This document shows positions 39,164-40,240 of a stretch of DNA of 64,000 bases, in pieces. The stretch is from Octopus sinensis. Its lineage: Eukaryota. A program made the position numbers and the translations under genes. The stretch covers positions 54,126,001 to 54,190,000 of the forward strand of contig NC_043007.1 of NCBI RefSeq assembly GCF_006345805.1. Reading direction: 5' to 3'. The notes under the pieces were generated by a model. It saw nothing but the letters and a program-made list of their open reading frames with translations. It searched no databases and was not told the origin of the DNA. The stretch's first letter is position 1. The number at the start of each line of letters is the position of its first letter.

Positions 39164-40240
39164 AAGAAGGGGATTTTTCGTTGTGCTTATTGTCCTGTAT
39201 CTCTCCTTTTTTTTTTTGCTTGTCTTGTTCCTTGGTTTGTGTCTATGTGTTTCGTCTCTCTATGTGTTCGACGTCTTTTTGGTGTCCTGTACACATATAT
39301 GCGTGTATATGTACATGTAGAGGTAGGTACGTACATATATGTTTATATATATGCATATGTTCTATTTTATTAACATATTATACGACTAAACGCACGCACC
39401 CTATTAAGTAAGATTGTTCTGTTTATCAAGTTAGCCTTGATATTAACTCTCACGCGACTCTGCATCTTTCTTTCCTTCTCTCCCATTCCCTTTTTCGTCT
39501 TTTTTTCCCTCACTTAACCTGTCTCTTCCTCTCTCTCTCATTCTTCATTCTCTCTCTCCCTTTCACCATTCTTCATGGTCTCCTCGCACCATTCCCCTTC
39601 TTCTCTCTCTTCCTCTTGCTCCTCCTCCCCCATTCCCGTCATCCATCTGCGACGACACTTCCGTCGTAACTGCTATCCTGTCTTTTCTCGCCCGCCTTGT
39701 AAGGCTTCTGGTCGACAAATTTTCCCTCTCTCGTCTTCCACGATAATCCAGCGTTTGCAATACTTTTTTCGTCTGGCGTTAACAGCCCTTCTTATCTTGT
39801 TCTCCTTGTCCTGTCTCTCACTGTTATATATTTATTTTTCCACTGTTTATATATATATTTTTTACTGTTTATATGTTTGTACTGTCGTTACCGTCTTGCT
39901 TTTTTTTACCCCTCTGCGAAAAGATCTCAGAATTTTAATTGATTTGCTTTTCGCGGGAAGGAATTTTTCTTCGAAGTATACGTCTCGCTTTTATCCTTCG
40001 AAACGTTTAGTAGATGAAATCTTAGCGACTGAAGAAGGGGATTTTTCGTTGTGCTTATTGTCCTGTATCTCTCCTTTTTTTTTGCTTGTCTTGTTCCTTG
40101 GTTTGTGTCTATGTGTTTCGTCTCTCTATGTGTTCGACGTCTTTTTGGTGTCCTGTACACATATATGCGTGTATATGTACATGTAGAGGTAGGTACGTAC
40201 ATATATGTTTATATATATGCATATGTTCTATTTTATTAAC

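Follow-up and report, generated by a model that had tools for sequence, protein, structure and literature searches.

A hammerhead motif with a predicted backbone opening between A9 and G10.1 in a non-coding Penelope-type repeat of Octopus sinensis

The insertion and its repeat family

The window analysed in this study is a 64,000-nucleotide stretch of Octopus sinensis DNA (contig NC_043007.1, positions 54,126,001 to 54,190,000), to which all coordinates without a locus name refer. Its forward strand carries a non-coding insertion of a repeat designated family F, in which a 5′-truncated unit is followed by a full unit, with (TA)n on both sides (Table 1). A first-pass annotation, made by a model from the letters of the window, had described a pLTR-like direct repeat at this place. 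This direct repeat is real, as 39164-39382 repeats 40032-40249. Because the truncated copy starts inside the CUGAAGA box, it does not contain a whole ribozyme motif. The one long reading frame of the 867-nt unit (39518-40186) gave no Pfam match, and the Naiad-clade frame, with an N-terminal GIY-YIG and a reverse transcriptase, was absent from the unit, which is non-coding. A descriptor for the type I hammerhead fold found nothing in the unit; what it carries instead is the motif with a split core that is described below.

Table 1. Coordinates of the family F insertion, of the parts of the predicted hammerhead motif, and of loci from other families
Feature	Position	Strand	Remark
Family F insertion	39164-40249	+	Non-coding; 5′-truncated unit, then full unit; (TA)n on both sides
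Upstream pseudo-LTR copy	39164-39382	+	5′-truncated; equals 40032-40249
Full repeat unit	39383-40249	+	867 nt
Px, 5′ strand	39909-39913	+	Predicted partner 40036-40040; invariant in family F, covaries in family G
Py, extra hairpin	39914-39956	+	39914-39923 with 39947-39956; abuts G10.1
Stem II, 5′ strand	39957-39962	+	G39957 = G10.1; predicted partner 39994-39999
Block S	39979-39989	+	Stem III strand 39979-39983 (U16.1 = 39983), H17 = C39984, stem I strand 39985-39989
Predicted cut	between 39984 and 39985	+	
Block G	39994-40007	+	Stem II 3′ strand 39994-39999 (C11.1 = 39999), GAAA 40000-40003, stem III strand 40004-40007
Stem I strand and core	40024-40035	+	Stem I strand 40024-40028, CUGAAGA 40029-40035 (A9 = 40035)
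Px, 3′ strand	40036-40040	+	Taken as stem II strand in the first-pass annotation
Family G loci	L090:2390-2500; L221-L250, L281-L310, L401-L430	+ (L090)	
Old Naiad-type copies	L191-L220, L251-L280		Split-core 3′ ends

A 136-nt query returned 1,795 candidates for family F in the genome, and the best 40 scored were all 100% identical. The shared 3′ motif of the family had 3,551 genome matches, the window-type block had 1,220 pattern matches, and patterns for the subfamilies F3 (one mismatch allowed) and F4 matched 926 and 392 times, respectively. Contigs from sequencing runs of four organisms cover the family F unit and reveal further subfamilies. In 30 loci, the 3′ end was fixed, the 5′ truncation was variable and units were arranged in head-to-tail arrays, which yields the pseudo-LTRs. 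Furthermore, the F3 loci displayed 30-40 bp tails and inverted truncated copies, both of which are known from Penelope-like elements (PMC8557442). Among the loci examined, no sequence linked the repeat to an autonomous element or to its pseudo-LTR. The family F motifs do not occur in those parts of the Naiad supplement of PMC8557442 that were covered, and the repeat shows no sequence similarity to a Naiad 3′ end. A Penelope frame beside the copy in locus L096 was considered as a partner and rejected, since it belongs to a separate element next to which the repeat had inserted.

In the window, the family F repeat sits between two LTR-retrotransposon pieces; frames of this kind (zinc knuckle, protease, reverse transcriptase, RNase H, integrase) were found at 34577-38205, 42085-43208 and 52533-54817 (-). 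A broken, 5′-truncated Penelope-like element, which retains remnants of reverse transcriptase and GIY-YIG (weak Pfam match), lies in (TA)n at 56265-59320 (-), and near 56440-56490 it contains a minimal type I hammerhead that has decayed and whose core box is altered. Type I hammerhead-like descriptor matches were present at 745-810 (-), 33740-33830 (+) and 45890-45957 (-), at least two of them within long inverted repeats typical of Penelope insertions. The window also contains a broken LINE (endonuclease, reverse transcriptase) at 46299-50361 (-), a Helitron fragment at 15364-16119 (-), and, at 2356-7100, an array whose 13-14 units measure about 315-430 nt. The units of this array are 90-100% alike, each has a variable (AG)n run, and the descriptors detected no hammerhead in them.

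Core letters, stems and two extra helices

The first-pass annotation had proposed a non-circularly permuted, pseudoknotted hammerhead at the edge of the direct repeat, and our analysis bears this out. Its blocks were found where it had placed them, at 39980-39989 (H17 = C39984), 40000-40003 (GAAA) and 40029-40035 (CUGAAGA), in the order S-G-C, but the motif as we read it reaches 70 nt further 5′, to 39909. The core letters CUGAnGA, GAAA and UH are present, and stems I and III flank the cleavage site. A descriptor for the S-G-C order gave one match in the window and none in 60 dinucleotide shuffles, while the matches of a loose S-G pattern were for the most part unrelated sequences and mutated copies. 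Rfam reported no hammerhead family for 35000-45000 at E-values up to 10, nor for seven loci at the gathering score, which is to be expected, because the motif is reordered.

Conservation was assessed in 46 whole copies, taken from 100 that had been sampled via a motif 200 nt away and were not selected on the ribozyme. All 13 core letters were retained in 39 of these copies, and H17 was C, A or U and never G. Across four subfamilies, 13 of 13 core positions were the same, compared to 57 of 89 unpaired positions. Stems I and III, which proved to be as the annotation had described them, both covary among the copies. Specifically, in a set of 97 distinct sequences from 145 copies, the pairs 39989-40024 (stem I), 39980-40006 and 39979-40007 (stem III) changed on both sides. 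For 39989-40024, C-G was present in 58 and U-A in 30 of 92 copies; as the copies are related, such counts are not independent and the covariation represents a handful of events. A fourth pair alternated between C-G and U-G, and the outer pair of stem III was U-U in the subfamily of the window. The F3 and F4 loci had been chosen by patterns that fix one strand, and the covarying partners fall outside those patterns. When 8,256 column pairs were scanned without guidance, 31 showed Watson-Crick covariation, four of which were located in helices of at least five pairs. Three of these four belong to stems I/III, and none conflicts with stems I or III. The linker that joins stem III to stem I includes, at 40010-40019, a nearly invariant stretch of 10 nt that is shared by all four subfamilies and has no supported partner. 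The corresponding linker of family G (see below) is similarly purine-rich, and 40010-40019 is possibly a tertiary contact.

The annotation had suggested a test of covariation in all three stems. Stems I and III do covary, whereas its stem II showed no covariation in the 97 sequences. It had paired the strand before GAAA with 40036-40042, downstream of CUGAAGA, through two G-U pairs and an A-C closing pair. This stem is formally possible in the window copy, but it is the weaker reading and probably wrong, as a partner located upstream pairs better and has a lower duplex energy (-7.3 compared to -5.0 kcal/mol). In the 46 whole copies, 98.2% of the stem II cells were paired with the upstream partner versus 85.0% with the downstream strand, and the outer pairs of the downstream stem break in other subfamilies. 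The upstream pairing was the stronger one in all eight representatives compared. With the stem II partner upstream and the bases after CUGAAGA pairing with 39909-39913 in helix Px, the chain would open between A9 and G10.1. The block C of Eckert et al. would then be split, because stem II is best formed upstream and the strand after A9 is taken by an extra helix.

The whole split-core layout was evaluated in 92 copies, since the upstream DNA of five of the 97 was not that of the element. In these copies, 93.6% of the cells were paired, compared to 44-53% in slid controls. The upstream stem II was paired in 98.7% of its cells and is closed by G10.1-C11.1. Both this stem and Px are invariant in family F and hence without covariation there, and their support is cross-family. 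Hairpin Py changed on both sides at 39915-39955 (U-A 39, C-G 38 and U-G 11 of 92 copies) and had a pairing probability of 0.85-1.0; two of its pairs were broken, in 31 and 52 of the 92 copies. The descriptor for the split-core layout gave one match in the window and none in 150 shuffles, and a relaxed version had no match in 4.63 Mb of shuffled loci. In 200 kb of evenly spaced genome, where about one match was expected, none was found.

Nested folding programs cannot score three crossing stems. When an 81-nt stretch was folded alone, no hammerhead was obtained (z-score +1.5). When 39905-40045 of the window copy was folded, Px and Py were present in the best structure as well as in the centroid, with a weak z-score of -1.2. 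Together, Px, Py and the upstream stem II amounted to -23.9 kcal/mol, compared to -13.6 kcal/mol for Py and the stem II of the annotation. The probability of the upstream stem II in nested-only ensembles was 0.01-0.02, because a local hairpin competes with it, and that of Px ranged from 0 to 0.99 depending on the boundaries chosen. RNAalifold, likewise nested only and run on a shorter alignment, returned a weak fold without covariation and an inactive pairing that involves the core.

Recurrence in unrelated families and 5′ ends of truncated copies

The split-core descriptor also matched in the flank of another locus, which is where family G, a repeat unrelated to family F, was first met. Family G has a non-coding unit of about 784 nt that occurs as young tandem copies in (TA)n, with 6,321 pattern matches and a long Px, and it shares no real sequence similarity with family F. 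We aligned 20 copies with an intact upstream part (17 of the first 30 matches and three from flanks; 18 distinct). These had the split-core layout with other stem letters and 93% of the cells paired, and both Px and stem III changed on both sides. The outer part of Py was omitted from this analysis, because the alignment is out of register there. The downstream stem II had no pairs in any of the 80 descriptor matches of family G (overlapping loci included).

A motif derived from published octopus Naiad consensi gave 227 genome matches to a Naiad-type 3′ end. In 30 old copies of this type, 88% of the cells of the split-core layout were paired, compared to 32-50% when the strands were slid; covariation in these 30 copies was not above that of shuffles (310 of 500). 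The downstream stem II had at most two pairs in 12 of 13 matches (two pairs in 11 of 13; overlapping loci included). Reverse-transcriptase remnants lie upstream of the Naiad-type motif in loci L253, L258, L262 and L270, with the motif downstream in L262, and one of two Naiad-type frames scanned matched RVT_1 at an E-value of 0.001. In two families unrelated to family F, the complement of the stem II strand occupies the same upstream place.

The same arrangement was seen by eye in six consensi from the covered part of the supplement of PMC8557442, namely Naiad_Amil, _Aacu, _Anas, _Plae, _Obim and _Ovul, which come from corals, octopuses and an acanthocephalan and differ in their stem letters. 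All six have the S-G-core order, and in none is the post-core strand complementary to the strand before GAAA. The complement of stem II lies upstream, starts with G and directly follows a hairpin, and the bases after A9 pair with bases that precede this hairpin. Several Naiads are flagged as 'HHR_half_core' by Craig et al. (PMC8557442). As a separate observation, five nematode Naiad 3′ ends in that supplement, flagged as 'HHR_core' or 'half_core', read by eye as complete hammerheads of type CSG, a type published, in the literature covered, from only two metagenome sequences.

To locate the 5′ ends of family F copies, we used the first 100 matches that one contig gave to the shared 3′ motif; some of these are tandem neighbours or duplicates. 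Nineteen of the 100 ends were located at -2 to +16 from the predicted cut. This amounts to 0.0159 ends per base at risk versus 0.0017 on both sides, an about 9-fold difference (P about 7e-11, or 4e-10 without one duplicate, for an interval picked after seeing the data). Most of these ends stop 5-16 nt short of the predicted cut; of 72 copies extending as far as the peak, 53 continue through it. The stronger hairpin, Py, had only a single end at its base and no pile-up. In family G, 22 of 60 ends (the first 30 matches and 30 of the next 70 listed) were located at 0 to +13 from the predicted cut, one of them exactly there, and one of the remaining 38 fell in the next 25 nt upstream of it. Points of truncation located further than about 90 nt upstream were disregarded here, since most of them are alignment break-offs. 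Microhomology with the target is by itself insufficient to explain the peak, because the peak includes subfamilies without TA at this place. As copies begin preferentially just 3′ of C39984, we judge that the cleavage position named by the annotation is probably right. The pile-up behind the predicted cut is an indirect sign that likely reflects cleavage inside the cell.

Interpretation and comparison with known systems

We consider it quite likely that this non-coding Penelope-type repeat carries a hammerhead motif with a predicted backbone opening between A9 and G10.1 and two extra helices that clamp it, and that the motif cuts after C39984 in the cell. The hammerhead motif is real and probably active, and the stem II of the first-pass annotation, and with it a type SGC layout, is probably wrong. 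Wired in this way, the motif is not of type SGC and is outside the six published permutations, as far as the literature covered extends. With somewhat less confidence, we favour the broader view that this seventh wiring is the hidden ribozyme of many Naiads (corals, acanthocephalans, cephalopods) and of non-coding satellites (about ten thousand copies here), cleaving in vivo and marking the insertion ends.

In the proposed RNA, Px would be followed by hairpin Py, the stem II strand from G10.1, the stem III strand, UH and the stem I strand. After 3-4 nt, the second stem II strand, GAAA, the stem III strand, a linker, the stem I strand, CUGAAGA and the Px partner would follow. Stacked on each other, Px and Py would form a rod at the place where known hammerheads have one bulged nucleotide, replacing the A9-G10.1 bond, and stems I, II and III would all be mutually crossing. 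The letters, their order and conservation, the covariation in stems I and III and in Py, the recurrence in unrelated families and the clustering of 5′ ends are observed, while the three-dimensional fold and its catalysis are inferred. Tandem read-through transcripts would be cut to unit length, and on the simplest reading the reverse transcriptase would often run off RNA cut at the predicted bond, with a few bases being lost on joining. Since the majority of copies extend past the site, templates that are uncut or have been re-ligated into circles would serve as well. An autonomous, TA-targeting Penelope-like element would supply the reverse transcriptase and endonuclease. Formally, the layout may be seen as the circle of types SGC, CSG and GCS opened at a fourth point, and it possibly originated by tandem duplication of a type-CSG motif that was then opened at A9/G10.1.

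Conceivably, the motif could be a plain type SGC hammerhead, with stem II formed by the strand after CUGAAGA (an extra A40036, followed by G40037-C39999) and with Px, Py and the upstream complement acting as accessory elements or as an off state. The S-G-C order and the 3-nt link between stems I and II do match this type (PMC10085705), Penelope hammerheads typically have an additional base between A9 and G10.1 (PMC4209133), and a register of four downstream pairs survives in 104 of 114 descriptor matches of family F (overlapping loci included). However, this downstream stem is the weaker one, without covariation and with outer pairs broken in other subfamilies, and it cannot form in family G or in the Naiad-type motif. 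In addition, Px and the downstream stem II compete for the same bases. A candidate for the fourth helix of type SGC (40013-40019 with 40044-40050) showed no covariation, and its middle pair was broken in 68 of 97 copies. We therefore regard a type SGC hammerhead as unlikely.

The split-core reading was also weighed against two explanations of a different kind. A conserved but non-catalytic element, descended from hammerhead relics and serving in docking or pausing of the reverse transcriptase, would attribute the peak of 5′ ends to pausing or template switching. It would fit with ends that mostly stop short of the cut, with copies that pass it and with nested folding that does not favour the active fold. 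Moreover, an anole Penelope-like element is without RNA-seq ends at its hammerhead site, and cleavage was dispensable in vitro, according to the covered part of PMC11167929. We nevertheless hold this explanation to be quite improbable, as the full set of catalytic letters is preserved both among subfamilies and in unrelated families, G is avoided at H17, and no covarying helix is in conflict with stems I or III. Furthermore, in two families whose letters differ, the peak has a sharp boundary at the bond predicted to be cut, and the stronger hairpin Py has no such peak. It is very improbable that only a strand-swapped dimer of two tandem units is active, with each active site being of ordinary circular topology. 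The units do occur in tandem, and the window copy has a short stem III with a palindromic sequence, like the dimeric minimal Penelope hammerheads (PMC4209133). The palindrome is lost in other subfamilies, however, where local pairing is retained; a local partner exists for every helix, and family G and coral Naiads have long non-palindromic stems III.

If the split-core reading is correct, non-circular hammerheads would move from metatranscriptome contigs into animal chromosomes, and the view that Naiads lack hammerheads would be corrected. The count of six possible orders rests on a core box that is inseparable from its stems, and a natural form opened at A9/G10.1 would overturn that assumption. 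Such a form would also provide an engineering handle, namely a site inside the core where a helix can dock. Insertion ends that pile up at the cut site constitute a genome-only readout for any such family, by which the role of hammerheads in Penelope-like elements becomes testable.

No description of the split-core layout was found in the freely accessible literature searched; the comparisons below refer to the parts of the cited papers that were covered. Additional helices have been described in some hammerhead variants (PMC13725137, citing Weinberg 2015), so that a helix within the core may not be without precedent. The Naiads of Craig et al. (2021) likewise target (TA)n and have tandem and inverted copies and 30-40 bp tails (PMC8557442). 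They are said to lack canonical hammerheads, with no fold given, and unlike Naiads the family F repeat is non-coding. Animal non-LTR retrozymes are also made of tandem units that are non-coding, a few hundred bases long and equipped with one hammerhead each, and they have been proposed to be non-autonomous partners of Penelope-like elements (PMC7229834; preprint 10.64898/2026.07.22.740005). Because retrozymes are defined by a type I hammerhead, their descriptors would miss the split-core motif (PMC7229834; preprint 10.64898/2026.07.22.740005).

The minimal type I hammerheads of Penelope elements (Cervera and de la Pena 2014; PMC4209133) share with the present motif the location in pseudo-LTRs and the G10.1-C11.1 pair. 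They have one extra nucleotide at 9/10.1, whereas the chain ends of our motif and its two helices are predicted at that place. These circular type I motifs are thought to need dimers (PMC4209133), whereas stem III of the window motif is predicted to be intramolecular. The closest relatives in wiring come from Eckert, Friedrich, Weinberg and Weinberg (2023), who assumed uninterruptible blocks and counted six orders. Type SGC (HRIMA-1 and a variant) was found only in metatranscriptomes, and one GCS candidate was the only case from the genome of a known organism (PMC10085705). Their search pattern needs CUGAUGA(U)G and a linker of 0-15 nt (PMC10085705), and the window motif does not fit it. Types SGC and CSG and the window motif have in common the order of S, G and core, the crossing stems, the 3-nt link between stems I and II and the core letters (PMC10085705). 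In the published types, however, block C (stem I strand, CUGAnGA and stem II strand) is assumed to be unbroken (PMC10085705), whereas in the window motif the stem II strand is predicted to lie upstream and two helices would bridge A9 and G10.1.
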